NCBI RefSeq assembly: GCF_054482525.1
Contig: NZ_CM137006.1
Direction: 5' to 3' (one strand)
DNA length: 64,000 nucleotides
Shown: positions 1,601 through 28,554 of the stretch, piece by piece
Numbering within the stretch: position 1 is the first letter of the stretch
Layout: every line of letters begins with the position of its first letter
Made by a program: the position numbers and the translations under genes
Notes under the pieces: generated by a model
What the model was told of the DNA's origin: nothing
The model's input: the letters and a program-made list of their open reading frames with translations, nothing else
The model's database searches: none

Positions 1601-1617
1601 TTTTATTCCCTTCTTAA

Positions 1618-3887: not shown

Positions 3888-3898
3888 ATTAAGCTGTA

Positions 3899-5059: not shown

Positions 5060-5064
5060 CGGTA

Positions 5065-5736
5065 TCAGCCACCCATTGAACGAGAAGAGGTGCCGGTTGC
5101 GCTACGCTGCATAGTGCTTTGTTTGGCAACAGATTCACCAAAACCGCCACGGGTAACGGTAGTGGTGGTCGCCGGTTTTGGTGCCATTGCCGTCTTCGGT
5201 ACGGTCATGGTGCGGCCTGGCTGGGCTGCGCCATAGTTTTTACCCGTCGCGTCGGTATATTTACCGTAAGCCGGGCTGGCTGGGTTTTTCGAGGAGAACA
5301 GCGGCTGCTGTGCAAATCCCGCGCCGCCGCCCATCAGACGCCCCATCATGTAACCGGCCATCAGCGGCATCCAGAAACTCCCGCTGGATTGCTGGGCCTG
5401 CGCCTGGTTTTCCGGTGCCATGCCAGCCTGGGCTGGTGCCTGCTGGCACTGACCTTCGCCAAATTCAGCAATACAGTCTTCACGAGTGGCGTATTTCGGC
5501 GCAGTACGTTCGGCTTCTTTCAGCGCATTGTTGTACGCAGTGGTACATTCGGCGCTTTTGCCTGGGTTTGCAGCTGAACAGTCGTCAGCATTTTGATAGA
5601 GAGACACTGTTTCATCACTCTTTTCACAGCCAGCCAGCATAAAAACAGTGGCAACCGCGAGAGCGACTGGTGTCAGATGGCGTGCGCTCCAGTTTTTGCG
5701 GAACGATGCGTGGCGTATGGATTTTGTCCGTTTCAT
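5065..5736 (-). CDS. ygiB: DUF1190 lipoprotein-like protein YgiB
   Basis: ORF track 5065..5769; start trimmed to MKRTKSIRH (223 aa) by recognition; Gly/Ala/Gln-rich. Confidence 0.85.
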
Positions 5737-5883
5737 TTTTGTCTTCCGGGACCAGTGGTAAATACCCATCAGAATAGAGGATGGCTGGTCGAAATTGAAG
5801 CGAGAAGGGGGAAGAATGCGGCAGATAACCCGTATCTTTACGTTGCCTTACGTTCAGACGGGGCCGAAGCCCCGTCGTCGTCA

Positions 5884-7365: not shown

Positions 7366-7569
7366 TTGCATTCCTTGTGGTGAAGCAGTATTTAGCGCGA
7401 TCAAACTGTAAAATTATTGCGGATTCTAGCAGAAGCCGCTACCGCAAAAGGTTGGCGTTACGTGCCATAGGGCGTTAATGTGCCTCAATTTAACACATGA
7501 CTGCTCAAACGGCAGTCAAACGTCGCTGAAATTCACATTTAATTCACTATTAGTGCCAGGACATTAACA

Positions 7570-8199
7570 ATGCTTAAGCCAGACAACCTGCCCGTTACAT
7601 TTGGCAAAAACGATGTAGAAATTATTGCACGAGAAACACTTTATCGCGGCTTTTTTTCATTAGATCTTTATAGATTTCGTCATCGTCTATTCAACGGGCA
7701 AATGAGTCATGAGGTACGGCGGGAAATTTTTGAGCGCGGTCACGCCGCAGTCTTGCTACCCTTTGACCCAGTGCGTGATGAAGTTGTGCTGATTGAGCAG
7801 ATTCGAATTGCCGCGTACGACACTAGCGAAACCCCCTGGCTACTGGAGATGGTTGCCGGAATGATTGAAGAGGGTGAAAGTGTGGAAGATGTTGCCCGTC
7901 GCGAAGCGATTGAAGAGGCGGGGCTGATAGTCAAACGGACCAAACCGGTGTTAAGTTTCCTGGCAAGCCCGGGGGGCACCAGTGAGCGTTCGTCAATTAT
8001 GGTGGGCGAAGTGGACGCCACGACCGCAAGCGGTATTCACGGTCTGGCTGATGAAAACGAAGATATTCGCGTTCATGTGGTAAGCCGGGAACAGGCATAC
8101 CAGTGGGTAGAAGAGGGGAAAATCGACAACGCAGCGTCGGTCATCGCTTTGCAATGGCTGCAGCTGCATCATCAAGCGTTAAAAAATGAGTGGGCATAA
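7570..8199 (+). CDS. nudF: ADP-ribose pyrophosphatase (Nudix)
   Basis: 209-aa ORF with Nudix box; divergent from tolC. Confidence 0.9.
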   Translation: MLKPDNLPVTFGKNDVEIIARETLYRGFFSLDLYRFRHRLFNGQMSHEVRREIFERGHAAVLLPFDPVRDEVVLIEQIRIAAYDTSETPWLLEMVAGMIEEGESVEDVARREAIEEAGLIVKRTKPVLSFLASPGGTSERSSIMVGEVDATTASGIHGLADENEDIRVHVVSREQAYQWVEEGKIDNAASVIALQWLQLHHQALKNEWA

Positions 8200-8622
8200 A
8201 TGAAGCGTTACACACCTGACTTTCCTGAAATGATGCGCCTGTGCGAGATGAACTTTTCACAATTGCGCCGTTTGTTACCGCGCAATGACGCACCCGGCGA
8301 AACTGTAAGCTATCAGGTGGCAAACGCACAATATCGGCTGACGATTGTGGAATCGACCCGATACACTACCCTGGTGACAATAGAACAGACTGCGCCCGCG
8401 ATCAGTTACTGGAGCCTTCCGTCAATGACGGTGCGTCTGTATCATGACGCGGTGGTGGCTGAAGTGTGTTCAAGCCAGCAGATTTTTCGCTTCAAAGCGC
8501 GGTATGATTATCCTAATAAAAAGTTGCATCAACGCGACGAAAAGCATCAAATTAATCAGTTTTTAGCGGACTGGTTGCGATACTGTTTAGCACATGGAGC
8601 GATGGCGATTCCGGTTTATTAG
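8200..8622 (+). CDS. yqiB: DUF1249 protein YqiB
   Basis: 140-aa ORF starting immediately after nudF stop. Confidence 0.85.
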
Positions 8623-8646
8623 CGTCGTGAAACCTAAGGACACCAT

Positions 8647-9474
8647 TTGGAAAGCCTGTTAACCCTTCCTCTGGCTGGTGAGGCCAGAGTCAGGATTTTA
8701 CAAATTACCGACACTCACCTGTTTGCACAAAAGCACGAAGCCCTGTTAGGGGTAAACACCTGGGAAAGCTACCAGGCGGTGCTGGAGGCGATTCGGCCAC
8801 ACCAGCACGAATTCGACCTGATTGTCGCGACAGGTGATTTAGCGCAGGATCAATCCTCTGCGGCCTATCAGCATTTCGCTGAAGGCATCGCAAGTTTTCG
8901 TGCGCCCTGCGTCTGGCTGCCGGGCAACCACGATTTCCAGCCCGCGATGTACAGCGCGTTACAGGATGCGGGTATCTCCCCGGCGAAGCGGGTGTTTATT
9001 GGTGAGCAATGGCAAATCCTGTTGCTGGATAGCCAGGTGTTTGGCGTGCCGCACGGTGAGCTGAGCGAGTTTCAGCTTGAGTGGCTGGAACGTAAACTGG
9101 CCGATGCGCCAGAACGCCATACGTTGCTGCTGCTGCATCATCATCCGCTACCTGCGGGTTGTAGTTGGCTTGATCAACACAGCCTGCGTAACGCGGGCGA
9201 ACTGGATACCGTGCTGGCGAAGTTTCCGCACGTCAAATACTTGCTGTGCGGTCATATTCATCAGGAGCTGGATCTCGACTGGAACGGTCGCCGCTTGCTG
9301 GCAACGCCGTCGACCTGTGTGCAGTTTAAGCCGCACTGTTCTAACTTTACGCTGGACACCATCGCGCCCGGCTGGCGTACTCTCGAGTTACATGCTGATG
9401 GCACGCTGACCACCGAGGTGCATCGCCTGGCGGACGCACGCTTCCAACCTGATACCGCTTCAGAAGGCTACTGA
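8647..9474 (+). CDS. cpdA: 3',5'-cyclic AMP phosphodiesterase
   Basis: 275-aa metallophosphoesterase ORF (DTHLF, GNHD motifs); apparent TTG start. Confidence 0.9.
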
Positions 9475-10055
9475 TGTCTACGCTTCTTTATTTACACGGT
9501 TTCAACAGCTCGCCGCGCTCTGCAAAAGCGAGCTTGTTAAAAAACTGGTTGGCGGAACATCACCCTGACGTAGAGATGATCATTCCGCAGTTGCCGCCGT
9601 ATCCTTCCGATGCGGCAGAACTGCTGGAATCCATTGTCCTGGAACATGGCGGCGATTCGCTGGGTATTGTCGGTTCGTCACTGGGGGGATATTACGCCAC
9701 CTGGTTGTCGCAATGTTTTATGCTGCCCGCAGTGGTGGTAAACCCGGCGGTGCGCCCGTTTGAACTGCTGACGGACTATCTCGGTCAGAACGAGAACCCC
9801 TACACCGGGCAGCAATATGTGCTAGAGTCACGCCATATTTACGATCTCAAAGTCATGCAGATTGACCCGCTGGAAGCGCCGGATTTGATCTGGCTGCTGC
9901 AACAGACGGGAGATGAAGTGCTGGATTACCGCCAGGCGGTGGCGTACTACGCTTCCTGCCGCCAGACTGTCATAGAAGGCGGCAACCACGCATTCACGGG
10001 CTTCGAAGATTATTTCAACCCGATCGTCGATTTTCTTGGTCTGCACCATCTCTGA
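9474..10055 (+). CDS. yqiA: Esterase YqiA (alpha/beta hydrolase)
   Basis: 193-aa ORF, start overlaps cpdA stop (TGATG). Confidence 0.9.
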
Positions 10056-10080
10056 CGATCAACTCGAATTGCTAACTTAA

Positions 10081-11976
<1,896 letters not shown>

Positions 11977-12004
11977 TAATCCTCCCGCCAGAAGAATAAA
12001 AAAT

Positions 12005-12037
12005 AGCCCGGTATACAAGTGTATACCGGGCTTTTTT
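12005..12037. terminator. Bidirectional rho-independent terminator (agcccggtatac..gtataccgggct + T-run)
   Basis: Perfect stem followed by TTTTTT between convergent parE and receptor gene. Confidence 0.75.
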
Positions 12038-12039
12038 GA

Positions 12040-14181
12040 TCAAAATTCCATTTTCACCGTGAATTGCACTTCACGCGGATCGCCAATCTGATTCCCCAGA
12101 TTATTTGTGGCGATGGAAGAGGTGTAATACGTTTTATCAAACAGGTTTTTGACGTTTAATTGCAGTGTGACCGGATACTGCAATTTCATTTTGTATGCAG
12201 CGAAGGCATCGGCAACGAAATAGCCTGGCAGATAATAGTCAGCCCCATTGGTTGCCGAACGACGGCTTACGCCATGTCCACCACCGCCAAACGTCAGTGT
12301 GTTATTGCCAGGCATGTTATGAATGTCATAAGTCAGGAATAGCGAACCGGTATGACGAGGAACATTCGGCAATGGTTTCCCTGCATAATCAGGATCCTCC
12401 AGAACCTTAGCATCGGTATAGCCGTAGCTGGCAATGATATTAATGTTTTCAGTTAATGCTCCCGCAAGGTCGACTTCTACCCCTCTTGAACGAACACGGC
12501 CTGCCGTTTTGGCAATGCTTTCATCACCAATACTTTCGGTATACAACACGTTACGTTTATGGATATCAAACAGCGCAATATCTGCGGTGATACCATCGAA
12601 TAGCTCGAATTTTGCCCCGACTTCGTAAGCATTAGATGATTCCGGTGGAAGATCGCCAATGTAGCTGGCAATTGACGACTGCGGCATAAATGTTTGCGAA
12701 TAATTGGCAAATAAGGATACCGATGGCGTCAGTTTGTAGACTAACCCCAGTTTGGGCGTCCATTGTTCATCGCGGCTGTCAGTATTGACATTAAAAGGAC
12801 GGCCTTTACCCGCATACTGCGTGTAATACTGATAGCGGATCCCGGCGACGGCAATCCAGTTATCGGTCAGATAGAGCGCGTCCTGTGCATACGCTGAGTA
12901 GCTCTCCTGTTTGATCGTCTGATCACTGTCCGACGCCGAAACCGTTGTGCATTTGCTGGTATTGCCATAAACGGGGTTGTAGATATTGAAATCTTTAGCG
13001 TTTTTACAGCGAATCATATCTGTGCGCAGAAGATCATAATATTCATATGACACCCCACCCAGAATCTCATTATAGAACCCAGCAATATCAGCATTCCCTT
13101 GCAGATCCGCACGAGTAGAATGCATACGCTGGGTAGATCCCTGAGTTGCATCAACACGCCGTGTCAGCGTTCCTGTCGTTGCATCATACGCGGTAACGCG
13201 AGCCTGATTGTCGCTGTATTTATCCTGGCTGTAGCTGTAATCAAAGCGCGCTGTCCACTGGCTATTGAGATGATATTCTGCGTTGAGTTGCGCCAGATCG
13301 GACTGACCATCTGTAATATTAAACGGTTCGTCAAAACGTATTTTTCGATCAACGTTTACGGGCTGTTTCGTCGTAAGGTCGAAAATCGTTCCACGATCGA
13401 ACGGAGTTTTATAGTCCCGATGGGAATAGAGCATGGTTACTGTTGCATTATCACCAAACCAGGTGAGTGACGGGGCAATAAATGTACTGCGCTCTTTACC
13501 GAAGTTTCGCCAGTAATCTTCATCCTGCACTTCCCCCGTCAGGCGGTATGCCAGCTGAGTGCCTTCAATGGGACCTGTGATATCAAGTTGCCCAGTGCCT
13601 CCGCCAAAACTGGAGGACGTGGCTGAGACAGAACCATGGAATGTTTTTTCCGGGCGCTTGGTCACGACGTTAATCAATCCACCAGGATCGAGAATGCCAT
13701 ACAGCGTGGAGGCCGGACCTTTTAGCACTTCCACACGTTCTGTGGCGGCGTTGAAACTGCGAGGAAGTACAGTTCGCAGGCCGTTGGTCATGATGGAGCC
13801 ATCCCGGTTTGCGCCAAACCCACGGCGTACAAAAGCATCCTGAGTCCCGCCTAATGTATTGGTCTGTACCACGTTACTGACGTTATAAAGCGCCTCATCC
13901 AGCGTTGTCGCATTCTGGTTTTCCAGAACCTGATCGCTAACCGTATTGACCACCTGCGGGATATCCAGCATCGGCATATCGGTTAATGTCGCCGTAGAGG
14001 TGCTCAGAGGTTGATAACCATCGGTTGCCTCAGTTGCGGTATTTGCATCTGCTGTAACAGTGATTGTTTCGCCATCTTTGGTCGTTACAGAGTCTGTTGC
14101 ATGAATCATCGGTGCCGCAAAAAGCAGTGAAAAGAGCGCCCGACCTTTGAGTCCTGAGAATGAAGGTGTGAACATAGCCAT
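12040..14181 (-). CDS. TonB-dependent outer membrane siderophore receptor (Fit-like, FitA?)
   Basis: 713-aa ORF with signal peptide, plug region and C-terminal terminal-Phe beta-barrel; divergent from ABC importer operon. Confidence 0.85.
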   Translation of the reverse strand: MAMFTPSFSGLKGRALFSLLFAAPMIHATDSVTTKDGETITVTADANTATEATDGYQPLSTSTATLTDMPMLDIPQVVNTVSDQVLENQNATTLDEALYNVSNVVQTNTLGGTQDAFVRRGFGANRDGSIMTNGLRTVLPRSFNAATERVEVLKGPASTLYGILDPGGLINVVTKRPEKTFHGSVSATSSSFGGGTGQLDITGPIEGTQLAYRLTGEVQDEDYWRNFGKERSTFIAPSLTWFGDNATVTMLYSHRDYKTPFDRGTIFDLTTKQPVNVDRKIRFDEPFNITDGQSDLAQLNAEYHLNSQWTARFDYSYSQDKYSDNQARVTAYDATTGTLTRRVDATQGSTQRMHSTRADLQGNADIAGFYNEILGGVSYEYYDLLRTDMIRCKNAKDFNIYNPVYGNTSKCTTVSASDSDQTIKQESYSAYAQDALYLTDNWIAVAGIRYQYYTQYAGKGRPFNVNTDSRDEQWTPKLGLVYKLTPSVSLFANYSQTFMPQSSIASYIGDLPPESSNAYEVGAKFELFDGITADIALFDIHKRNVLYTESIGDESIAKTAGRVRSRGVEVDLAGALTENINIIASYGYTDAKVLEDPDYAGKPLPNVPRHTGSLFLTYDIHNMPGNNTLTFGGGGHGVSRRSATNGADYYLPGYFVADAFAAYKMKLQYPVTLQLNVKNLFDKTYYTSSIATNNLGNQIGDPREVQFTVKMEF

Positions 14182-14278
14182 TTAGTCTGTTATCCCAAAA
14201 ACTCGCGGATTGTCGCGAGTGAAAATTGTTTCTTATTGCTCACTAAGCACTATCCGTTTGTTATTTCACCATCGGATA

Positions 14279-14302
14279 TGTAATTGAGAATCATTCAATC
14301 AT
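14279..14302. promoter_or_regulatory. Candidate Fur box in divergent promoter region
   Basis: taattgagaatcattcaatc resembles GATAATGATAATCATTATC (about 13/19 by eye); AT-rich divergent region. Confidence 0.3.
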
Positions 14303-14554
14303 GCGGTGATGTAGTAGTAAATGAGAAATAACAAAAAATTGCTACATGTGTTTTTATGAGAGGTTAATGCAATTCAATTGATGGTAATTTATTAATATTT
14401 AATGGTTTTATTTTTATCTTTAAAAATATTTCACCTGTTATTTACCTTGTTTTTGTGTGGCTTTTAACTGCTTGACTACTACATTTTGTGGCGTCAAACT
14501 CTCAAAGGAGAATGAGTTTTATTTTTGTTTGTCTTTGATTAAGTTGGCGTACAC

Positions 14555-15364
14555 GTGGCACATAACGCAAAAGGGCAGGGGCTGATCCTCGACAATGTTT
14601 CTGCCGGGTATCACAAGAAAATCATTGTTGATGGTGTTTCTTTCTCCGTTCCCACAGAAAAAATGACCGTTCTGGTTGGGGCAAACGGCTGTGGAAAGTC
14701 GACGTTGCTCAGCACCATTGCACGTATCTTGCAACCCATGGGCGGTTCGATATTGCTGGATGGTAAAGCGATTCACGAGCAACCAACGAAAGCGTTATCC
14801 CGTAGACTTGGGATCTTGCCGCAGTCGCCATTATTGCCGGAGGGCTTAACCGTTTATGAACTGGTGTCGCGTGGGCGTTTTCCCTGGCAGAATTTCATTC
14901 GTCAATGGAGCGACGCCGATGAGCTGGCGGTAGAAGAGGCCCTGAAATTAACGGGTACGCAGGAGTTTGCACATTTACCTGTTGAAAAACTCTCTGGTGG
15001 GCAGCGCCAGCGTTGCTGGATTGCGATGGTGTTGGCGCAAAAGACGCCTTATATCCTGCTGGATGAACCCACAACCTGGCTTGATTTACGTTATCAGGTT
15101 GAAATTCTTGAGTTATTACATGATTTAACACGTCATCACGGGCGTACAGTCGTCGTGGTGTTGCATGATCTGAATTTTGCCGTCAATTATGGCGATACGT
15201 TGATATTTTTACGCCAGGGGAAAGTGGTGCGTGTGTTGAATGAGGGGGAGCATTGCACGCCTGAGCTGGTAAAAGCGGTCTTTGACGTTGATGTTCACGC
15301 ATCAATAAATCCTCTGACGGGAAAGCCGTTCTTCATGCCGTTTCGTGGTGTAGAAAAAGTATGA
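14555..15364 (+). CDS. Iron-siderophore ABC transporter ATP-binding protein (FhuC/FecE-like)
   Basis: 269-aa ORF with Walker A GANGCGKST and LSGGQRQR signature; GTG start forced by in-frame stop at 14540. Confidence 0.85.
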   Translation: MAHNAKGQGLILDNVSAGYHKKIIVDGVSFSVPTEKMTVLVGANGCGKSTLLSTIARILQPMGGSILLDGKAIHEQPTKALSRRLGILPQSPLLPEGLTVYELVSRGRFPWQNFIRQWSDADELAVEEALKLTGTQEFAHLPVEKLSGGQRQRCWIAMVLAQKTPYILLDEPTTWLDLRYQVEILELLHDLTRHHGRTVVVVLHDLNFAVNYGDTLIFLRQGKVVRVLNEGEHCTPELVKAVFDVDVHASINPLTGKPFFMPFRGVEKV

Positions 15365-16344
15365 TGCGCACAGGGCTGGTTACTGTAATTTTCCTCGCCT
15401 TACTGCTGGTGGGATGCGTGGTATATCCAGGGATTGGTGCCCGATTTATTGCACCACAAACGGTATTGCAGGCATTTCTTCATTTTGAACCGCAAAACTT
15501 CGATCACAACGTAATTGTAAGACTCCGTTTGCCGCGTTTAGCGGCAGCATTGCTTACCGGTGCTTCTCTTGGAGTTGCTGGTGCTTTGTTGCAGGCTGTC
15601 ATTCGTAACCCATTGGGGGAGCCACATATTTTAGGCTTAAATGCCGGAGCCGCTCTTGCTGTCGTTGCTGCCAGTGCGCTTGGGCTGGCCTTTCCGGTTG
15701 GACGCCCACTGCTGGCATCTACGGGCGGCGCGTTATTGTTCCTGTTGATATTGCTGCTTTCCTCCGCAGGGCGTTCAGGGTTAACGCCAATGAAAGTTAC
15801 TTTATGCGGCGTGGCGCTATCGGCGTTCGTGTCCTCAATAACGGCTGCAATCCTGATTCTTGACGAACAAACACTGCTGGCGATGCGGACATGGCTAGCA
15901 GGTGATTTAGCGGGGCAGGATTGGGCGACGCTGGGTACGTCCGCCTGGTTTTCTCTGGGGGGATTTGTGTTAGCCCTTTACCTTGCACCCTCCCTTAACA
16001 TGTTGGCACTGGGCGATCGCATGGCGCAGGGGCTGGGCGTCTCTGTACTCCGCACGCGAACATTCACCCTGCTTGCGATCGCGTTGCTCTGTGGCGCAGC
16101 CGTATCGATTGCTGGCCCCATTGGTTTTGTCGGCCTGCTAGTACCGCAGATTGTCCGGCGTCTGGTATCAGCGGATCTGCGCGTTCTGCTCCCTCTTTCA
16201 GCTTGTGTCGGCGCACTTTTGTTATTACTGGCAGATATTATTGCCCGTACGCTTTTCACGCCCCATGAATTAGCGACCGGTGTCATGACGGCGTTAGTTG
16301 GTGCGCCTGTTTTTGTCATTATGGCGACGAGGATGTTCAAATGA
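15361..16344 (+). CDS. FecCD-family ABC permease
   Basis: 327-aa hydrophobic ORF, 4-nt overlap with upstream ATPase gene. Confidence 0.85.
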   Translation: MMRTGLVTVIFLALLLVGCVVYPGIGARFIAPQTVLQAFLHFEPQNFDHNVIVRLRLPRLAAALLTGASLGVAGALLQAVIRNPLGEPHILGLNAGAALAVVAASALGLAFPVGRPLLASTGGALLFLLILLLSSAGRSGLTPMKVTLCGVALSAFVSSITAAILILDEQTLLAMRTWLAGDLAGQDWATLGTSAWFSLGGFVLALYLAPSLNMLALGDRMAQGLGVSVLRTRTFTLLAIALLCGAAVSIAGPIGFVGLLVPQIVRRLVSADLRVLLPLSACVGALLLLLADIIARTLFTPHELATGVMTALVGAPVFVIMATRMFK

Positions 16345-17390
16345 GTCGGATAATGAACGTCGGGCTACGCCCACTACGTGTTGGTAAGTTTTCGACACTG
16401 GTACGCCCTAAAAATCTGCTGTTGCTTGGTGGGCTGTTTCTGTTTGCGGTTGGAATACTGATATTCGGTCTGATGCAGGGTTCTTTCTCTGTTCCGGCAT
16501 CGGAAGTAGGACGAGCGTTGTTTGCTCCAGAAAACGTAAGCACAGACGCACGTTATATTGTGCAGGATATTCGCTTGCCGAGAGTCATCATGGCATTGCT
16601 ATGCGGGGCCATGTTAGGTATGGCAGGGGCCGCAATGCAATCCATTGCACGTAACGGCCTTGCCGATCCTGGGTTAATCGGCGTCAAAGAAGGATGTAGC
16701 GTGGCTGTGCTGTGGCTGATTTTCCAGTTTCCAATGCTGGGAGTGTTCTGGCGTCCAGTGGCTGGTCTTGCTGGTGGCCTGTTGGTGGCTTTAATCGTGA
16801 TTTTTTGTGCGCGCGATATTTCCCGCCCGCGATTTGTTCTGATTGGTATTGGTGTTTCCTGGTTTTTCGCCGCCGGTATCGGTGTATTTATGACCACTGC
16901 AGATGTTCGAGATGTACAAACTGCATTGATGTGGTTATCGGGAAGCCTGCATGCAGCTAACTGGATGTTAGTCGGTATTTCAGCCTGTTGGATGTTGCCA
17001 GCCGCTCTTTTATTGCTGTTCACCGCCAGGACGGCGGATATCGCTCTGCTTGGTCATCAGGTTGCAACCGGGTTAGGGGTGAATAGTTCTCGTCTGGCGT
17101 TGTTACGTGTCGCCGCACCCATAATCCTGACAGCCGTCTGCGTTTCGTGTGTTGGTAACATCGGTTTTGTCGGATTGATAGCACCCCATATATCACGTTT
17201 TATGCTACGTGGCGGGCAGACGACATTACTGCTGGGGAGCGCGGTATCGGGGGCGTTGTTAGTTATTCTGGCGGATAGCATTGGTCGTTTGGCTTTTTTG
17301 CCTTTGCAACTGCCTGCCGGAATCATTATCTCACTGATTGGTGGACCATTTTTTTTGCTACTGCTCTGGCAGCGCAGGAACAGTTTTTAA
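16341..17390 (+). CDS. FecCD-family ABC permease (second)
   Basis: 349-aa hydrophobic ORF, overlaps previous permease stop. Confidence 0.85.
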   Translation: MSRIMNVGLRPLRVGKFSTLVRPKNLLLLGGLFLFAVGILIFGLMQGSFSVPASEVGRALFAPENVSTDARYIVQDIRLPRVIMALLCGAMLGMAGAAMQSIARNGLADPGLIGVKEGCSVAVLWLIFQFPMLGVFWRPVAGLAGGLLVALIVIFCARDISRPRFVLIGIGVSWFFAAGIGVFMTTADVRDVQTALMWLSGSLHAANWMLVGISACWMLPAALLLLFTARTADIALLGHQVATGLGVNSSRLALLRVAAPIILTAVCVSCVGNIGFVGLIAPHISRFMLRGGQTTLLLGSAVSGALLVILADSIGRLAFLPLQLPAGIIISLIGGPFFLLLLWQRRNSF

Positions 17391-17400
17391 CGGGAGTTAT

Positions 17401-18348
17401 ATGCGTTTATTTTTTTCTCTGCTGATACTGTTGTCATTTTTTTCCCGTGCAACAGAACCTGTTCAGGTATTTACTGATGATTTAGGGCGCAAAGTCACTG
17501 TTCCTGCTCATCCAAAGAGAATTGTCTCTTTACACGATCTTGATATCACTATTCCTCTGATTGAGCTCGGTGTACCTCCTGTCGCCAGCCACGGGCGAAC
17601 TCGGCCTGACGGTAGCCATTTCATTCGATCTGGCGCGTTATTGACAGGTGTCGACTTTGATAATTCATCGATCGCCTTTATTGGTACCGCTGATATTGAT
17701 ATTGAAGCGATTGTGGCGGCAAAGCCTGACTTGATCATCACAGAACCGACCCGTAATACGCCCATTGAACAACTTGAAAAAATTGCGCCCACGGTGAGCA
17801 TTGATCATCTCAAAGGGGGCGCGCCAGAAATCTATCGCAAGCTGGCAGAACTTACAGGAACGCAGTCGCAGCTGGCGATACTTGAACGCCGCTATCAGGC
17901 ACAAATCAATGCGCTGAAGGCGACGCTGGACAGCCAAAAAATAACGGTATCGGTGATTCAGGCAAACCAGGGAAAAATTAATGTGATGCATAGCTATCAT
18001 TCGCTGGGGCGGGTATTACGCGATGCTGGTTTTCGTTTTCCGCCGCTGATTGAGAGCATTCCTGAAGGTGGGCGAATGGATGTGAGCGCGGAGCGTTTAC
18101 CTGAACTGGATGCCGATTTTGTTTTTGCAACCTGGCGCGGTGACACCGGTGGTAAACCTCAGGATGAGCTGGCAGCAATGGAAAAAGTCATGCCGGGATG
18201 GTGTCAGTTTCTGACTGCCTGTCGTTCCGGGCGTTATGTGCTGATTTCTCGTGAAGAGGCAATTTCTAACTCCTTTGCATCACTGGGGCTGATGGCTGCG
18301 CAGATACAATCACAAATTGCAGGGCGACCTCTACCGGAGGCTAAATGA
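17401..18348 (+). CDS. Periplasmic siderophore-binding protein (cluster A SBP)
   Basis: ORF track 17338..18348; start trimmed to MRLFFSLLILLSFFSRA signal peptide preceded by GGGAG. Confidence 0.8.
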   Translation: MRLFFSLLILLSFFSRATEPVQVFTDDLGRKVTVPAHPKRIVSLHDLDITIPLIELGVPPVASHGRTRPDGSHFIRSGALLTGVDFDNSSIAFIGTADIDIEAIVAAKPDLIITEPTRNTPIEQLEKIAPTVSIDHLKGGAPEIYRKLAELTGTQSQLAILERRYQAQINALKATLDSQKITVSVIQANQGKINVMHSYHSLGRVLRDAGFRFPPLIESIPEGGRMDVSAERLPELDADFVFATWRGDTGGKPQDELAAMEKVMPGWCQFLTACRSGRYVLISREEAISNSFASLGLMAAQIQSQIAGRPLPEAK

Positions 18349-19232
18349 TCCAGAAAGATAAAGCGCGGGTTGATATTTTTGGTGAGCGTTTTCGCACTCG
18401 CGCGAGTCAGTTAACGCCTGGGTTAAGAGCTGTCGCCAGCTACATTAATGAGCATCGTGAAGTGGTACTCGAGCAAACGGCGATGGAAATTGCGGCCACG
18501 TTGAACACTTCCGATGCCACAGTTATCAGGGCTATACAGGCCCTGGGGTTTGCCGGGCTGCGTGATCTGAAACGCACTCTGGAACAGTGGCTTGGTCCAG
18601 CCCTTAGTTCCAGCGAAAAGATGTCTACGACGGTGAGTAACTTGACGAGCGATGTTAACACCGCAATCGACTTTGTTCTTGAAGGGCATTTGTATACCTG
18701 TAATGTCCTGTCAGAGCCTGAAAACCGCCACGCGCTTGCGCAAGCTGTAGCGTTGTTGGTGCAGGCACGGCAAGTCGCAATTTTTGGCATTGGCGCTTCG
18801 GGTATTCTGGCGGACTATACCGCACGACTATTCAACCGCATAGGTTTGCCTGCCACGGCACTAAACCGTACGGGGATTGGCCTTGCCGAGCAACTGATCG
18901 CGCTTCAACGTGGCGATGTTCTGATCATGATGGCGCAAAAATCTGCGCACCGGGAAGGGCTGACAACGCTTCGTGAGGCGAGGCGGCTGGGGATCCCTGT
19001 TATTTTGCTGACAAACGCGCTGGATTCGCGTTTTAGCAAAGACGCCAGTATCGTGATTCATGTTCCGCGCGGGGATGAAAAAGGGAAAACGCCGCTACAT
19101 GGTACGGTATTGTTGTGTCTGGAAATGATTGTCTGGTCGGTAGCTTCCGCAGTGCCGCAGCGTGCGGTTAAAACCATTAAGCGAATTAACGATTTCCATC
19201 GAGGACTGAAAACGGGAAGAAAGAATGGCTAA
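18345..19232 (+). CDS. RpiR/MurR-family transcriptional regulator (HTH + SIS domain)
   Basis: 295-aa ORF; N-terminal HTH, C-terminal SIS-like phosphosugar-binding region; start overlaps binding-protein stop (ATGA). Confidence 0.75.
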   Translation: MIQKDKARVDIFGERFRTRASQLTPGLRAVASYINEHREVVLEQTAMEIAATLNTSDATVIRAIQALGFAGLRDLKRTLEQWLGPALSSSEKMSTTVSNLTSDVNTAIDFVLEGHLYTCNVLSEPENRHALAQAVALLVQARQVAIFGIGASGILADYTARLFNRIGLPATALNRTGIGLAEQLIALQRGDVLIMMAQKSAHREGLTTLREARRLGIPVILLTNALDSRFSKDASIVIHVPRGDEKGKTPLHGTVLLCLEMIVWSVASAVPQRAVKTIKRINDFHRGLKTGRKNG

Positions 19233-19276
19233 TCTGGGCTGAGACCGGTAGCAACACCGGCCTCTTTTCAGGAATG

Positions 19277-19591
19277 TTAAATCCCCGGTTGCAGGATGCG
19301 GATATTCATCTCCAGCACATCGCCTTTTACGGCCTCGCTGTACGCTTTCATGTGCGGGGTCTGCAAGTGCGCTTCAAGATGCGCGATGCTTTCCCACTGC
19401 TCAATCATCACGATAGAATCCGGTGCCATAGACTGGAAACTCACGCCAGCAGCGCAATCCACCATTGGCGCATAGCCGTGGCAACCTTCTTCTTTCAGTA
19501 CGGTTGGAACGATTTTAGCAAACTGATCCAACACTGCCTGACGGTGATGTTGACCAGGACGAGTACGGATTTCTGCGATTACTGTAATCAT
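19277..19591 (-). CDS. ygiN: Quinol monooxygenase YgiN
   Basis: 104-aa ORF recognised. Confidence 0.9.
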   Translation of the reverse strand: MITVIAEIRTRPGQHHRQAVLDQFAKIVPTVLKEEGCHGYAPMVDCAAGVSFQSMAPDSIVMIEQWESIAHLEAHLQTPHMKAYSEAVKGDVLEMNIRILQPGI

Positions 19592-19621
19592 GGTTAACTC
19601 CTTCTAAAGCCAGAGCTCTAG

Positions 19622-20203
19622 TTAACCAAAAATTTCCACAAGATGCTTGCGATATTCTTCAGTATAGCGGGGAACATCAGGCATTTTTATCACGTCATTA
19701 GCGATAAATGTCGGCAGCGGTTCCATGCCAAGGAATTGGTTTGCTTTATGGAACGGCAGGTACACACCGTCAACACCAACGCCGTGGAAGAACTGATCTT
19801 TTTCGGTGAAGGCTTCCATTGGTGCGTTCCAGGTCAGAGAAAGCATATATTTTTTGCCCTGTACCAGGCCGCCGGAGCCGTATTTTTTCGACGGATCTTT
19901 GCGGGTACGACCATCGCTGGCATACAGCGTCCCGTGACCTTCGGTGAATACATCATCAATGTATTTTTTCACTGTCCACGGCGCGCCCATCCACCAGCCT
20001 GGCATCTGCCAGATCACCGCATCAGCCCAGAGAAAGTTTTGTACTTCCGCTTTGACATCGTAGTCGCTGTCGGCGCGAACGATGCGGACATCATGCCCGA
20101 GGTCGCGCAGTGTGCCATCCGCGACTTCGGTCAGGGTGTCGTTCAGTTGACCATTGGAGTGGGCGAATTTTTTCGCGCCGTTGATAATCAGGATGTTGCT
20201 CAT
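19622..20203 (-). CDS. mdaB: NADPH:quinone oxidoreductase MdaB
   Basis: 193-aa ORF recognised. Confidence 0.9.
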   Translation of the reverse strand: MSNILIINGAKKFAHSNGQLNDTLTEVADGTLRDLGHDVRIVRADSDYDVKAEVQNFLWADAVIWQMPGWWMGAPWTVKKYIDDVFTEGHGTLYASDGRTRKDPSKKYGSGGLVQGKKYMLSLTWNAPMEAFTEKDQFFHGVGVDGVYLPFHKANQFLGMEPLPTFIANDVIKMPDVPRYTEEYRKHLVEIFG

Positions 20204-20312
20204 TTTTTAACCTCAAGGTGAGACGTTTGCCGACTATAGTACGTCACAGAGCGGTACGGTGAAATTAGCAAAATGTGCAAAGTCTTTTGCGAATTTAGCA
20301 AAAGTCTTACCC

Positions 20313-21662
20313 TTACCAGCTTATCTTCGCCTCAAATCCACCTTGTTCCGCATTCCCAAATTCAACATTCATGTCATGCAGCTTGGCGATTCGCTGGACA
20401 ATCGATAGCCCAAGTCCACTGCCGGTAGCGGTTTGTCCGGGTGGGCGATAGAAGCGTTCGCCAATTCTCGCCAGTGCCTCTGGTGTCACACCGGGGCCGT
20501 TATCCCTCACGATGAAATTATCGGCATTCAGCGTGACGTCTACCACGCTACCTTGTGAACTGTAACGCACGGCGTTATCCAGCAAATTTCGCACCAACAA
20601 ACTTAGCAATAGCGGTTGTCCGGTGCGTTTGATGCCGTTGGCATTGAGTGTCAGTCGCACGTCAATGTTCGCCTGCTGCGCCGTGTGGTAAATATCCATC
20701 ACCGACGATTGCAGGAGATCTTCAAGCGGGATCTCCGCGACGTCCTGAAGGTTATCCAGTGAGTCCAGCCGCGATAGCGTGAGCAGTTGATCAACCAGAC
20801 GAGTAGCGCGATCGATCCCGGAATGTAATTGAAGCAGCGCTTTTTTCCGCGCCTGCGGATCATCGTCAGAGAGCTGCGCAACTTCGGTTTGCACTTTCAG
20901 CGCCGTTAACGGGCTACGAAGTTCGTGAGCTGCGTCGGAGGTAAAGCGTCGTTCACGAACCATCATCGCATGTGTGCGGGCGAACAGTTGATTCAACGAC
21001 TCAACCAGTGGACGCACTTCGCTGGGTACGCCCGTCGCGTTTAGTGGTTTTTCCGAGTCAGGGTCACGCATACGTAGTGCCAGCGCCAGTTTGTTCAGCG
21101 GCGCGAGTTCACGACCCAGTAGTACCATCATGATGATTAACATAATCGGCAGTGCGACAAGCCACGGGAGCAATTGTCCGGCAACAATCGCCAGCGCCAT
21201 GTCTTCACGGTATTCCCATTCCTGACCCACAACGATGCGATATTTGCCATCAGGTGAGGTCATCCAGACAAAACGCCAGGGATCGTCTTCACCGACCAGT
21301 TGCCCGTCAGCAAAACCTTCCCGCTGATAGCTATAGGGAATATCTTCTCCGTTATCGCCATCGTTAAGGACCATTCTGCCGTCGTGAGTAAAGATGGCAA
21401 AGGTCAGCGCATCGTCATCAACATGACCGTGTTTTAATTTATTTGGCGTCTGTGCCATGCGATCTGCCGCGTTGATTTCGTTGAGATCGAGCGTACTTAA
21501 CCGTTTGGCAAACAGCATCAGTTGGGTGTCGAACAACTCATCGACGTTATCCGTTGTTTGTTTCCAGGCGACAAAGCTGGAAAGCAGCCAGGTCACCGAG
21601 GCCAGAATTAAAAAGATTAGCGTCAGCCTGACTCGCAGACTAAGACGTTGGGTAAATTTCAT
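20313..21662 (-). CDS. qseC: Sensor histidine kinase QseC
   Basis: 449-aa ORF, two TM segments, H-box AAHELRSPL. Confidence 0.9.
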
Positions 21663-22318
21663 TTCTCACCTAATGTGTAGCCAATACCATGAACGGTACG
21701 AATAAAATCACTGCCGAGTTTGCGTCGCAGATGATGCACATGCACTTCAACGGCATTACTGGTGACCTCTTCGTCCCAGGTATACAGTTTCTCTTCAATC
21801 AGTTTGCGCGGCAGTACCCGACCAGCGTTACGCATCAGTAATTCCAGCAGGGCAAATTCTTTTGGTTTCAGCGTTAAGGGTTCGCCAGTCAGTGTGGCGA
21901 TACGTTTGCCGGGGTCGAGCATGACGTTGCCGTGGCGCAGCTCGTTGCTGGCCTGGCCGTTGGTTCGGCGCATCAGAGCTTCCAGCCTGGCGGCGACTTC
22001 TATCAACGCAAAAGGTTTACACAGATAATCGTCAGCTCCCAGGCGCAGCCCTTCTACACGTTCCGCCAGCGCATCGCGCGCGGTCAGGATCAATACCGGC
22101 TCACGCTGACCTTTTTCTCGCCATTCGCGCAAAATATCGCGACCATCCATGCCTGGTAAGGTTAAATCCAGGATCACCGCATCATAAGGCGCGCTATATA
22201 GCGCCTCTTTTCCCTGACGACCTTGTGTAAACCAGTCGACGCTAAAACCCATTTTACTAAGGCCCGTTTTGATGCCGTCGCCAATCAGCATGTCATCTTC
22301 TATCAGTAAAATTCGCAT
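21659..22318 (-). CDS. qseB: Response regulator QseB (OmpR family)
   Basis: 219-aa ORF; overlaps qseC start. Confidence 0.9.
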
Positions 22319-22469
22319 TTTTTCATCCCTGCGATAACCGTATTTGCTGCCAGTAAACCGTGTTGTAACGCGCTCTGTACAGCATTAAATTTTATTTTTT
22401 TCCCTTAAGAAGTTGTTAAGGACTATCTTGTTAAATGCTCGGAAACAGACATTAAAGGGAGTAATAAAC

Positions 22470-22862
22470 ATGAAAAAATTCGCAGCAGTAATCGCAGTAA
22501 TGGCCCTGTGCAGTGCACCGGTGATGGCAGCAGAGCAGGGAGGTTTTTCTGGCCCATCGGCAACGCAAAGTCAGGCCGGAGGATTCCAGGGGCCGAACGG
22601 CAGCGTAACGACCGTAGAAAGCGCAAAATCCCTGCGTGACGACACCTGGGTAACCCTGCGCGGCAATATCGTTGAACGCATCTCTGACGATCTCTACGTG
22701 TTCAAAGATGCCAGCGGTACTATCAATGTGGATATCGATCACAAACGCTGGAACGGCGTGACGGTGACGCCGAAAGATACGGTTGAGATTCAGGGTGAAG
22801 TCGATAAAGACTGGAACTCTGTTGAAATTGACGTCAAACAGATCCGCAAAGTAAATCCGTAA
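22470..22862 (+). CDS. ygiW: Periplasmic BOF/OB-fold protein YgiW (VisP)
   Basis: ORF track 22413..22862; start trimmed to MKKFAAVIAVMALCSAPVMA (130 aa). Confidence 0.85.
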   Translation: MKKFAAVIAVMALCSAPVMAAEQGGFSGPSATQSQAGGFQGPNGSVTTVESAKSLRDDTWVTLRGNIVERISDDLYVFKDASGTINVDIDHKRWNGVTVTPKDTVEIQGEVDKDWNSVEIDVKQIRKVNP

Positions 22863-22914
22863 TTGTTACCGCTCCCGGGACGCGTTCCCGGGAATAATTT
22901 CGCAGGGAGGCAAA

Positions 22915-23397
22915 ATGACAAACCTGACACTGGATGTAAATATTATCGATTTCCCATCAATCCCTGTGGCGATGTTGCCGCACCGTTGTAGCCCTGAGTT
23001 GCTCAACTACAGCGTGGCGAAATTTATCATGTGGCGTAAAGAGACGGGGCTTTCTCCTGTTAACCAAAGCCAGACTTTTGGCGTCGCCTGGGACGACCCT
23101 GCCACCACCGCACCAGAAGCGTTTCGCTTTGATATCTGCGGCAGCGTTAGCGAACCGATCCCCGATAATCGTTATGGCGTAAGTAATGGTGAACTTACCG
23201 GTGGACGTTATGCTGTGGCCCGCCATGTTGGCGAGCTGGACGATATTTCACACACGATATGGGGCATCATTCGCCACTGGCTTCCGGCAAGCGGCGAAAA
23301 AATGCGCAAAGCCCCGATCCTGTTTCACTACACCAATCTTGCCGAAGGGATGACAGAGCAGCGACTGGAAACGGATGTTTATGTACCGTTAGCGTGA
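22915..23397 (+). CDS. ygiV: GyrI-like / AraC effector-domain protein YgiV
   Basis: 160-aa ORF recognised. Confidence 0.8.
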   Translation: MTNLTLDVNIIDFPSIPVAMLPHRCSPELLNYSVAKFIMWRKETGLSPVNQSQTFGVAWDDPATTAPEAFRFDICGSVSEPIPDNRYGVSNGELTGGRYAVARHVGELDDISHTIWGIIRHWLPASGEKMRKAPILFHYTNLAEGMTEQRLETDVYVPLA

Positions 23398-23505
23398 TGG
23401 GGAATCTTTACCGGAGTGTGAGCCAAATCACTCGCGATAAGTTTGAGCGAACAATGCCACAGGCGTATTGTTGTTGGGCTTATAATTTCTCCGGTAAGGA
23501 ATACC

Positions 23506-25113
23506 ATGTATACGCGAAATTTATTATGGCTGGTCAGCCTGGTAAGTGCGGCTCCTCTCTACGCTGCTGACGTTCCCGCCAACACACCGCTCGCCCCGCA
23601 ACAAGTCTTTCGTTACAACAATCATAGCGACCCAGGCACGCTCGACCCGCAAAAGGTAGAGGAGAATACTGCCGCGCAGATTGTGCTGGATCTGTTTGAA
23701 GGTCTGGTATGGATGGACGGTGAAGGCCAGGTGCAGCCCGCTCAGGCTGAACGCTGGGAGATACTGGACGGCGGCAAGCGCTATATTTTCCATCTGCGTA
23801 GCGGTTTGCAGTGGTCAGACGGTCAGCCTCTGACGGCAGAGGATTTTGTCCTCGGCTGGCAGCGCGCGGTTGACCCGAAAACGGCAAGCCCTTTTGCTGG
23901 CTATCTGGCACAGGCGCACATTAACAATGCCGCGGCTATTGTTGCGGGTAAAGCAGATGTTACATCGCTGGGTGTCAAAGCGACGGATGATCGTACTCTT
24001 GAAGTTACGCTTGGGCAGCCAGTTCCTTGGTTCACGACGATGCTCACCTGGCCGACGCTGTTCCCGGTTCCTCATCATGTCATCGCTAAACATGGCGATA
24101 GCTGGAGTAAGCCAGAGAACATGGTTTACAACGGTGCCTTTGTGCTTGATCAGTGGGTAGTTAACGAAAAGATTACTGCACGCAAAAATCCAAAGTACCG
24201 CGATGCGCAACATACAGTATTGCAACAGGTTGAGTATCTGGCGCTGGATAATTCGGTCACCGGCTATAACCGCTATCGCGCGGGAGAGGTCGATCTCACC
24301 TGGGTTCCGGCGCAGCAAATTCCCGCCATTGAATAATCACTGCCTGGCGAGCTACGAATTATCCCGCGTCTGAACAGCGAATATTACAACTTTAACCTTG
24401 AGAAACCGCCATTTAACGATGTGCGGGTGCGTCGGGCGCTATATCTTACGGTTGATCGACAGCTTATTGCGCAAAAGGTACTGGGGTTGAGAACGCCCGC
24501 AACCACGCTGACGCCGCCAGAGGTAAAAGGCTTTAGCGCGACGACGTTCGATGAACTGCAAAAGCCAATGAGTGAGCGTGTCGCGATGGCAAAAGCCTTG
24601 CTCAAACAGGCGGGATACGACGCCTCTCATCCGCTACGCTTTGAGCTGTTCTACAACAAGTACGATCTGCATGAAAAGACCGCGATAGTGTTGTCTTCCG
24701 AATGGAAAAAATGGCTGGGTGCACAGGTGACGCTGCGCACAATGGAGTGGAAAACCTATCTTGATGCCCGACGAGCCGGTGATTTCATGCTGTCTCGGCA
24801 GTCGTGGGATGCGACGTACAATGATGCTTCCAGCTTCCTGAACACGCTCAAAAGCGATAGTGAAGAAAACGTCGGTCACTGGAAAAATGCGCAGTATGAC
24901 GCCTTACTAAACCAGGCCACGCAGATCACTGATGCGACAAAGCGTAATGCGTTGTATCAGCAGGCAGAAGTGATCATCAACCAGCAGGCACCGCTGATTC
25001 CTATCTACTATCAGCCGTTAATCAAACTACTTAAACCCTACGTTGGCGGTTTTCCGCTGCATAATCCCCAGGATTATGTCTACAGCAAAGAGTTGTATAT
25101 CAAGACACATTGA
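23506..25113 (+). pseudogene. ygiS: ygiS (OppA-like periplasmic binding protein) interrupted by in-frame TAA at 24334-24336
   Basis: ORFs 23443..24336 and 24421..25113 are in the same frame, separated only by one stop codon; combined length 535 codons. Confidence 0.8.
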
Positions 25114-25250
25114 TGTCTTTATCGCCGCCGGAGCACGTCCGGCGGCGCTATTCACGCTGATCTCCTGTGACTCGACGCGGCAGATAATGTAGTATCTCCG
25201 GCAATATTGCCCCTTTGAAGGCTGGCGAATAAGTTGAGGAATCAGAATTA

Positions 25251-27509
25251 ATGAGCGATATGGCAGAGCGCCTTGCGCTACATGAATTTACGGAAAACGC
25301 CTACTTAAACTACTCCATGTACGTGATCATGGACCGTGCGTTGCCGTTTATTGGCGATGGTCTGAAACCTGTTCAGCGCCGCATTGTGTATGCGATGTCT
25401 GAGCTGGGCCTGAATGCCAGCGCCAAATTTAAAAAATCGGCCCGTACCGTCGGTGACGTACTGGGTAAATACCATCCGCACGGCGATATCGCCTGTTATG
25501 AAGCGATGGTCCTGATGGCGCAGCCGTTCTCTTACCGTTATCCGCTGGTTGATGGTCAGGGGAACTGGGGTGCGCCGGACGATCCGAAATCGTTCGCGGC
25601 AATGCGTTACACCGAATCCCGGTTGTCGAAATATTCCGAGCTGCTATTGAGCGAGCTGGGGCAGGGGACGGCTGACTGGGTGCCAAACTTCGACGGCACT
25701 TTGCAGGAGCCGAAAATGCTGCCTGCCCGTCTGCCAAACATTTTGCTTAACGGCACCACCGGTATTGCCGTCGGCATGGCGACCGATATTCCACCGCATA
25801 ACCTGCGTGAAGTGGCTCAGGCGGCAATTGCCTTAATCGACCAGCCGAAAACCACGCTCGATCAGCTGCTGGATATCGTGCAGGGGCCGGATTATCCGAC
25901 TGAAGCGGAAATTATCACTTCGCGCGCCGAGATTCGTAAAATCTACGAGAACGGACGTGGTTCAGTGCGTATGCGCGCGGTTTGGAAGAAAGAAGATGGC
26001 GCGGTGGTTATCAGCGCATTGCCGCATCAGGTTTCAGGTGCGCGTGTACTGGAGCAAATTGCTGCGCAAATGCGCAACAAAAAGCTGCCGATGGTTGACG
26101 ATCTGCGCGATGAATCTGACCACGAGAACCCGACCCGTCTGGTGATTGTGCCGCGTTCCAACCGCGTGGATATGGATCAGGTGATGAACCACCTCTTCGC
26201 TACCACCGATCTGGAAAAGAGCTATCGCATTAACCTCAATATGATCGGTCTGGATGGTCGTCCGGCGGTGAAAAACCTGCTGGAAATCCTCTCCGAATGG
26301 CTGGTGTTCCGCCGCGATACCGTGCGCCGCCGACTGAACTATCGTCTGGAGAAAGTCCTCAAGCGCCTGCATATCCTCGAAGGTTTGCTGGTGGCGTTTC
26401 TCAATATCGACGAAGTGATTGAGATCATTCGTAATGAAGATGAACCGAAACCGGCGCTGATGTCGCGGTTTGGCCTTACGGAAACCCAGGCGGAAGCGAT
26501 CCTCGAACTGAAACTGCGTCATCTTGCCAAACTGGAAGAGATGAAGATTCGCGGTGAGCAGAGTGAGCTGGAAAAAGAGCGCGACCAGTTGCAGGGCATT
26601 TTGGCTTCCGAGCGTAAAATGAATAACCTGCTGAAGAAAGAACTGCAGGCAGACGCGCAAGCCTACGGTGACGAACGTCGTTCGCCGTTGCAGGAACGCG
26701 AAGAAGCGAAAGCGATGAGCGAGCACGACATGCTGCCGTCTGAACCTGTCACCATTGTGCTGTCGCAGATGGGCTGGGTACGCAGCGCTAAAGGCCATGA
26801 TATCGACGCGCCGGGCCTGAATTATAAAGCGGGCGATAGCTTCAAAGCGGCGGTGAAAGGTAAGAGCAACCAACCGGTAGTGTTTGTTGATTCCACCGGT
26901 CGTAGCTATGCCATCGACCCGATTACGCTGCCGTCGGCGCGTGGTCAGGGCGAACCGCTCACCGGCAAATTAACGTTGCCGCCTGGAGCGACCGTTGACC
27001 ATATGCTGATGGAAAGCGACGATCAGAAACTGCTGATGGCTTCCGATGCGGGTTACGGTTTCGTCTGCACCTTTAACGATCTGGTGGCGCGTAACCGTGC
27101 AGGTAAGGCTTTGATCACCTTACCGGAAAATGCCCATGTTATGCCGCCGGTGGTGATTGAGGATGCTTCCGATATGCTGCTGGCAATCACTCAGGCAGGC
27201 CGTATGTTGATGTTCCCGGTAAGCGATCTGCCGCAGTTGTCGAAGGGCAAAGGCAATAAGATTATCAACATTCCGTCGGCAGAAGCCGCGCGTGGCGAGG
27301 ATGGTCTGGCGCAACTGTACGTTCTACCACCGCAAAGCACGCTGACCATTCATGTTGGGAAACGCAAAATTAAACTGCGTCCGGAAGAGCTACAGAAAGT
27401 CACTGGCGAACGTGGACGCCGCGGTACGTTGATGCGCGGTTTGCAGCGTATCGATCGTGTTGAGATCGACTCTCCTCGCCGTGCCAGCAGCGGTGATAGC
27501 GAAGAGTAA
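25251..27509 (+). CDS. parC: DNA topoisomerase IV subunit A
   Basis: 752-aa ORF recognised. Confidence 0.95.
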
Positions 27510-27550
27510 TATGCCGGGGAGGGCGCTGTTTCCTCCCGCTTGCAAGGAAC

Positions 27551-27580
27551 GCCGGATGAAACGTTAAGTCGTCATCCGGC
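27551..27580. repeat. REP-like palindrome (gccggatga...tcatccggc)
   Basis: Inverted repeat with GCCGGATG / CATCCGGC arms downstream of parC. Confidence 0.55.
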
Positions 27581-27742
27581 AGCGTATTCAACCCCCGGAA
27601 ACGATAAAAATTCCCTTGAAACCGTTGTTTATTCATGCGTTGCGATTAACAATACGCTTTTCCAGAGAGCTGCTTTTAACAATGCCCTAACCTGATTTCA
27701 GGTGACGTACAATGCCAGTCTCTCAGACCTTCAGAGGGTGTT

Positions 27743-28480
27743 ATGCTATATATCTTTCGTCTTATTATTACCGTGATTTACAGCATTTTAGTCTGTGTAT
27801 TCGGCTCCATTTACTGCCTTTTCAGCCCGCGTAATCCGAAACATGTGGCCACCTTTGGGCATATGTTTGGCCGTCTTGCGCCGCTGTTCGGCCTGAAAGT
27901 GGAGTGCCGCAAACCTGCAGACGCTGAAAGTTACGGCAATGCTATCTATATCGCTAACCACCAGAACAACTATGACATGGTGACAGCATCGAACATTGTG
28001 CAACCGCCGACGGTAACGGTTGGTAAAAAGAGCTTGCTGTGGATCCCCTTCTTCGGGCAGTTGTACTGGTTAACCGGTAACTTATTGATCGACAGAAACA
28101 ATCGCACTAAAGCTCACGGCACTATTGCGGAAGTCGTGAATCACTTCAAAAAACGCCGTATTTCCATCTGGATGTTCCCGGAAGGAACCCGCAGCCGTGG
28201 TCGCGGCCTGCTACCGTTCAAGACCGGGGCATTTCACGCGGCAATTGCGGCGGGCGTCCCGATTATTCCCGTGTGCGTCTCTACAACTTCGAATAAGATT
28301 AATCTTAATCGGCTACACAACGGTCTGGTGATTGTCGAAATGCTGCCGCCAATTGACGTCAGTCAGTATGGCAAAGATCAGGTTCGCGAGTTGGCTGCCC
28401 ATTGTCGTTCGATAATGGAACAAAAAATCGCTGAGCTCGATAAAGAAGTCGCAGAGCGCGAAGCCGCCGGAAAAGTTTAA
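27743..28480 (+). CDS. plsC: 1-acyl-sn-glycerol-3-phosphate acyltransferase
   Basis: 245-aa ORF with HQNNYD acyltransferase motif. Confidence 0.95.
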   Translation: MLYIFRLIITVIYSILVCVFGSIYCLFSPRNPKHVATFGHMFGRLAPLFGLKVECRKPADAESYGNAIYIANHQNNYDMVTASNIVQPPTVTVGKKSLLWIPFFGQLYWLTGNLLIDRNNRTKAHGTIAEVVNHFKKRRISIWMFPEGTRSRGRGLLPFKTGAFHAAIAAGVPIIPVCVSTTSNKINLNRLHNGLVIVEMLPPIDVSQYGKDQVRELAAHCRSIMEQKIAELDKEVAEREAAGKV

Positions 28481-28554
28481 GTCGGCAATCTGTATTTTTG
28501 CGGGGAACACTTTCCTGCACGGTATTACTTTAGCCAGTTTTACATGGAGCAAAT

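Follow-up and report, generated by a model that had tools for sequence, protein, structure and literature searches.

A nonsense mutation in the orphan binding-protein gene ygiS of a small Escherichia coli clone

The gene ygiS of Escherichia coli is interrupted by an in-frame TAA codon in the window, by which we mean the whole stretch of 64,000 nucleotides that was analysed. We put the probability at about 0.93 that this interruption is a real nonsense mutation and that it has turned a dispensable orphan binding-protein gene into a clone-specific pseudogene. An A-to-T change at position 24334, a genuine point mutation, converted AAA (Lys277) into TAA, and the resulting ygiS pseudogene has been inherited vertically within one small clone. 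The mutation, its ancestral state, its inheritance, its position in the protein domain and the fact that strains can dispense with the gene are established by the comparisons set out below.

The ygiS locus in the window

The window is E. coli DNA: the 1801-nt stretch from 23400 to 25200 matches 5,425 of the 5,426 complete RefSeq E. coli genomes, and in every genome that has the gene its annotation is ygiS, with the product name 'ABC transporter substrate-binding protein'. The local gene order is qseC-qseB / ygiW-ygiV-ygiS-parC-plsC, and in the window as in all compared genomes the immediate neighbours of ygiS are ygiV (GyrI-like) upstream and parC downstream. Because no permease or ATPase gene adjoins ygiS, either in the window or in any compared genome, we regard YgiS as an orphan binding protein. 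An earlier note on this DNA had spoken of a 'ygiS transport system', a description that does not survive the finding that the locus, flanked by ygiV and parC, holds no transporter genes.

A mechanically made list of open reading frames (ORFs) places two in the same frame of the plus strand, 23443..24336 and 24421..25113. Translated from 23506 to 25113, the DNA yields 536 codons, with one internal stop (codon 277, TAA at 24334-24336) and a terminal TGA; the remaining 535 positions equal the length of K-12 ygiS, whose coding sequence is 1608 nt long. The coordinates and the arithmetic by which the earlier note had joined the two ORFs into a single frame of 535 codons, the length of YgiS, are correct. 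It had also called the ORFs separated only by one TAA codon, which is right in that no other stop intervenes, but after the TAA the frame runs through another 28 sense codons (24337..24420) before it reaches a GTG. The features of the locus are as follows.

23506-25113, plus strand: ygiS pseudogene, 535 codon positions and TGA, for an OppA-like periplasmic solute-binding protein (family 5)
23495-23500, plus strand: Shine-Dalgarno-like TAAGGA, 5 nt 5' of the native ATG at 23506, read from the sequence
23506-23565, plus strand: putative signal peptide, residues 1-20, MYTRNLLWLVSLVSAAPLYA, from the OppA alignment
24334-24336, plus strand: premature stop TAA at codon 277, with T as the next base; from AAA (Lys) by A to T at 24334
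23506-24336, plus strand: N-terminal fragment by translation, 276 aa including the signal peptide, last residue Glu276
24421-25113, plus strand: C-terminal ygiS remnant, a same-frame ORF with GTG start, 230 aa, without signal peptide
24014, plus strand: lineage-specific missense change E170G (GAG to GGG), by comparison with LR-28
24046, plus strand: lineage-specific missense change A181T (GCC to ACC), by comparison with LR-28

Differences from K-12 are found around ygiS as well. K-12 carries the mqsR-mqsA toxin-antitoxin pair between ygiV and ygiS, whereas the pair is absent from the spacer of the window (23398-23505); arrangements with and without mqsRA between these genes are both common among E. 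coli genomes. Two accessory clusters, at about 12040-19300 and about 250-3400 of the window, are not in K-12 at those positions. In the annotation of the related genome GF131, the cluster between ygiN and parE encodes an iron-siderophore ABC importer, a TonB-dependent receptor and an RpiR-type regulator, while the other encodes an aryl-sulfate sulfotransferase with dsbL and dsbI. The iron-uptake cluster between ygiN and parE may resemble the 'fit' locus. The sole Rfam match above its gathering score in the window is the ES173 sRNA (34640-34703, minus strand, 99 bits).

The ancestral codon and the clone that carries TAA

The closest intact allele, that of LR-28, is 99.8% identical to the window ygiS and aligns with it gap-free over 1608 of 1608 nt; the three nucleotide differences, none of them synonymous, correspond to E170G, A181T and K277* in the window. 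The TCM3e1 allele likewise aligns without a gap over 1608 nt, with 12 differences. K-12 ygiS, which has the same length (1608 nt) and the same place upstream of parC, shares 98.8% nucleotide identity with the window, from which it differs in translation at five of the 535 codon positions (E170G, A181T, K277*, A395V and A534T) and synonymously at 13 further codons. At codons 170, 181 and 277, LR-28, TCM3e1 and K-12 all have GAG, GCC and AAA. The alignment of orthologues that the earlier note had recommended for finding the ancestral sense codon returns AAA in each of these strains; codon 277 is AAA in every intact allele examined and, judged by this comparison, is ancestrally a lysine codon. 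K277* results from an A-to-T transversion at 24334, midway along a GAAAAAT run.

The same stop is found in GF131 (NZ_CP172134.1), the complete genome of an isolate from chicken meat in Switzerland, which is 100% identical to the window over the 1801 nt, TAA included. PGAP calls its ygiS (locus tag ACHP5R_RS19575) a pseudogene with an 'internal stop', and ygiS is the only gene so flagged among the 61 distinct CDS features of the corresponding GF131 region. Together with the AAA of the intact alleles, this annotation of an identical sequence bears out the nonsense mutation that the earlier note had proposed. We surveyed the complete genomes with a probe of 55 nt that has the T at its centre; no 28-base megablast word of the probe leaves this base out, and genomes bearing the A therefore cannot seed a match. 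The T at 24334 was found in one of 5,426 complete genomes, GF131, to which the G170/T181 pair is also confined among complete genomes. Since only this one of 5,426 carries it, the TAA allele is, on this survey of sequences, a marker of one small E. coli clone.

Further members of the clone come from draft or read-based assemblies (NCBI drafts and Logan assemblies of SRA runs), in which an exact search for the 276-aa N-terminal product succeeded; the TAA is present in the six loci listed (L008-L013). All six have ATTGAATAATCA together with a separately called 230-aa downstream ORF, and the flanking SNPs differ between most of them. One of the six, GCA_036913395.1 (L012), differs from the window by 1 SNP in 20.8 kb and has the island-less arrangement described below in common with it. 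Exact copies of the 276-aa fragment are known from 59 contigs and of the 230-aa fragment from 65, counts in which some isolates are possibly included twice (NCBI and Logan).

The occurrence of the same T in these assemblies bears directly on a sequencing or assembly error, the alternative that the earlier note had left beside mutation and under which the true codon 277 would be AAA. Such an error might be suspected from the position of the change within a homopolymer of five A (GAAAAAT), which is error-prone on some platforms. However, the change is a substitution, not an indel, and the same T recurs in at least seven other independently assembled samples, namely GF131 and six other assemblies from different projects with differing flanking SNPs. 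Both fragment proteins are recorded, on the 59 and 65 contigs, and no gene other than ygiS is flagged as a pseudogene in the GF131 region. Because the T is shared by assemblies that differ in their flanking SNPs and the fragments recur across contigs, we consider error excluded and assign it a vanishingly small probability.

Close relatives that also stop at this codon had been named in the earlier note as an observation that would speak against a mutation. Such relatives do occur within the clone, but all more distant relatives are intact; the shared stop is therefore a matter of inheritance and not of an ancestral two-gene arrangement.

We also considered whether the window is GF131 itself and rejected this identification, the two being separated by 5 SNPs in 1..28,500, then by a divergent tract and by the presence or absence of an island of ~7.7 kb. 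This island, whose site in the window is at ~29969-30028 between ftsP and ygiQ, is present in GF131 and in most relatives with the TAA and is lacking from the window and L012; it carries genes for a GntR regulator, a mannitol dehydrogenase, a Zn-dependent alcohol dehydrogenase, an Ldh_2 oxidoreductase and a TRAP transporter (DctPQM). Beside the island site, the SNP-dense tract 28561-29931 holds 16 clustered SNPs in 1.4 kb of ftsP, a clustering that is consistent with a recombination or deletion boundary. 

Downstream of ygiS, the parC gene of the window (25251..27509, plus strand) bears S80I (AGC to ATC at 25489; codon 25488-25490), a classic fluoroquinolone-resistance change, and its product also shows D475E relative to K-12. 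Codon 80 is ATC in L011, L012 and the window. As GF131 and four other isolates with the TAA have the wild-type AGC, a sub-branch of the clone gained ParC S80I after the ygiS mutation.

Predicted consequence of the stop for YgiS

The intact allele encodes one Pfam domain, SBP_bac_5 (PF00496), at residues 75-453 (283 bits against a gathering cut-off of 32.4). The best solved structure for YgiS is that of OppA (1b05, E=3.6e-145), with MppA next; OppA and MppA (PDB 1b05, 3tcf and 3o9p) are full-length paralogues of YgiS that also belong to SBP_bac_5, and residues 21-535 of YgiS align to the whole mature OppA chain. Whereas OppA is encoded with its own permease and ATPase genes, ygiS is solitary. 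The protein begins with a hydrophobic leader of 20 residues, followed by ADVPA, which is aligned to mature OppA residue 1; because the OppA alignment begins at query residue 21, we take residues 1-20 to be a putative signal peptide and ADVPA the likely mature start.

YgiS of E. coli K-12 (b3020) appears as a 'putative deoxycholate-binding periplasmic protein' in some records, has the TCDB entry 3.A.1.5.41 and was still tabulated as uncharacterised in a 2024 paper (PMC10971958). According to the summaries given in PMC6918082 and PMC4963858, YgiS promotes deoxycholate uptake and lowering YgiS raises tolerance (Kwan et al., 2015), while Fraikin et al. (PMC6918082) dispute the associated regulation by MqsR. 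The substrate of YgiS is only putative.

Translation of the window allele from the ATG at 23506 would halt after 276 residues, and the product would keep its signal peptide but no more than about the N-terminal half of its one family-5 domain. The stop falls at position 185 of the 368 positions of the SBP_bac_5 profile and aligns to K258 of mature OppA, at the equivalent of which the window YgiS ends. The N-terminal fragment covers profile positions 1-185 of 368 (150 bits) and the C-terminal fragment positions 217-365 (92 bits). Everything aligned past OppA mature residue 258 would be missing from the product. In the OppA structure of Tame and co-workers from 1994, residues from about 271 to 486 reportedly make up domain III, and those from about 487 to 517 the final strand-segment of domain I. 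If so, the truncation would remove domain III entirely, together with the final segment of domain I and hence one whole lobe of the cleft. The window allele thus lacks the complete two-lobe fold, its translation ending at residue 276 of 535. Because domain III and the last domain I segment would be missing, no ligand cleft should be able to form, and from the truncation at Pfam position 185/368 and OppA residue 258 we infer that functional protein is absent, loss of YgiS function being the expected outcome.

Function might still be kept if the two halves worked as a split gene, with an N-terminal fragment and a C-terminal fragment re-initiated from the GTG at 24421 acting together or separately. 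Both fragments are open and both are predicted by gene callers, and the downstream frame is undamaged except for private SNPs. However, none of the in-frame starts at 24421, 24427, 24487 and 24568 is preceded by a Shine-Dalgarno sequence, whereas the native start has TAAGGA, and the first GTG lies 84 nt past the stop. A promoter and terminator scan of 23300..25300 gave nothing above shuffled expectation, and no internal promoter for the C-terminal ORF. The C-terminal piece has no signal peptide, so the two halves would not share a compartment; none of the more distant orthologues is split in this way; and members of the clone are gaining missense changes downstream of the stop (L289P and A393V). 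We therefore hold a functional split gene to be very improbable. The ORF 24421..25113 is probably not translated, and since it has neither a ribosome-binding site nor an export signal, this frame of 230 codons should give no periplasmic protein.

Full-length YgiS could also arise by programmed or suppressor-mediated readthrough of the TAA. The stop is followed by T, however, and TAA followed by T is among the most efficient termination signals in E. coli. The codon is neither UGA, as for selenocysteine, nor UAG, as for pyrrolysine. There is no tRNA gene in the 64-kb window, and therefore no suppressor in the window. Moreover, the stop is confined to one clone and one unrelated isolate (see below) and orthologues do not share it, contrary to what a programmed event would lead one to expect. 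Readthrough has hardly any claim to credence, and a truncated YgiS that has lost its function is the product that we expect of the pseudogene.

Loss of ygiS across E. coli and its possible drivers

The gene is not kept by all strains of the species. A query coverage of at least 80% was reached in 4,054 of 5,425 complete genomes, and ygiS is absent from about 1,357-1,371 of the ~5,425 (~25%). A deletion allele, carried by strains such as O26:H11 11368 and H19, is a natural null at the same locus that arose by a different mechanism and is common, in contrast to the rare TAA allele. In this allele, ~29 nt from the 5' end and ~40 nt from the 3' end of ygiS are left around a 236-bp filler (L006:3128-3363 in H19). 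By BLAST, the filler is single-copy, occurs in 1,357 genomes and is specific to genomes with ygiS deleted; a portion of a group II intron maturase region from another strain matches it at 93% identity, and an Rfam scan of the 236 bp found no family. The filler looks like the scar of an intron-associated deletion. A different disruption is seen in strain PA2 (L025:607-2335), where PGAP annotates ygiS as two partial pseudogenes, in a locus that exceeds the intact gene by ~121 bp. The loss is tolerated because ygiS, an orphan gene, is dispensable and has disappeared from E. coli on several occasions, and we infer that the loss in the clone is neutral.

Where it is intact, ygiS nonetheless looks constrained. 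With the three changes of the window lineage set aside, the window and K-12 differ by 13 synonymous and 2 non-synonymous codons. By contrast, the ratio of synonymous to non-synonymous changes on the window lineage is 0:3 (against 13:2, Fisher p=0.012), and becomes 1:5 (p=0.006) when the private changes of the clone (L289P, A393V and Y512Y) are added; private clone SNPs are also mildly enriched in ygiS (3/8 against 10.7% of the length, p=0.046). This pattern, drawn from small numbers, would fit relaxed constraint.

Such a relaxation may have preceded the stop. In one metagenome scaffold (L024), the single record of this combination, G170 and T181 occur in a full-length ygiS whose codon 277 is still AAA, and no allele with just one of E170G and A181T is on record. 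The consensus of this one metagenome weakly suggests that E170G and A181T came before K277*. Since both missense changes appear older than the stop, constraint on ygiS may already have disappeared or altered by the time the stop arose, a sequence that a pure 'one hit' story leaves unexplained.

The identical change of AAA to TAA at codon 277 also occurs in a K-12-like allele, in a Logan contig from ERR1609531 (L014:7244-7246). The ygiS of L014 differs from that of K-12 at 4 sites and from that of the window at 20, and it has mqsRA upstream; the fit island is missing, and parE directly adjoins ygiN. Because L014 and the window differ as close to the mutated base as 88 nt on its 5' side and 29 nt on its 3' side, the TAA of L014 is best read as an independent recurrence. 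The 276-aa form with E170/A181, on record in 21 contigs, had been considered as a large second lineage. This candidate was rejected: 9 of the 10 contigs listed simply end in the A-run, at codon 276/277, and L014 is the only one of the 10 with a real TAA.

That the same TAA turns up in the unrelated K-12-like L014 might be a sign of selection, or of a hotspot, and not of drift. Under selection, the molecular event would be the one described above and only its driver would differ: loss of ygiS in gut E. coli would be convergent and advantageous, for example through less deoxycholate entry, and K277*, having arisen twice, would be one of several adaptive null alleles. The reported part of YgiS in deoxycholate import, with the higher tolerance on its lowering that is summarised in PMC6918082 and PMC4963858, lends this some appeal, as do four independent inactivations (the deletion scar in ~25% of genomes, PA2, K277* in the clone and K277* in L014) and the non-synonymous excess on the window lineage. 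Yet ~75% of the complete genomes keep a gene of intact length, with a synonymous-rich 13:2, and the TAA allele is rare (1 of 5,426 complete genomes). Given that sequenced E. coli number in the hundreds of thousands, it is unremarkable for one particular nonsense SNP to be seen twice. We consider selection an unlikely driver, if a far more serious contender than error, a split gene or readthrough, and regard drift in a dispensable gene as the likelier origin of the pseudogene.

Public annotation already covers the gene, its family and the allele described here (the GF131 pseudogene with an 'internal stop'), and the phenomenon is routine; a literature search on ygiS pseudogenisation returned nothing relevant. 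As an ordinary clone-specific pseudogene, the case carries little weight alone. At this locus gene callers report two proteins, each named 'ABC transporter substrate-binding protein', and so inflate protein databases. The T at 24334 can serve as a clean marker SNP by which to recognise the small clone, one of whose isolates is from chicken meat. The allele is one more example of the repeated loss of ygiS, which bears on the debate over an influence of YgiS and MqsRA on bile-salt tolerance.
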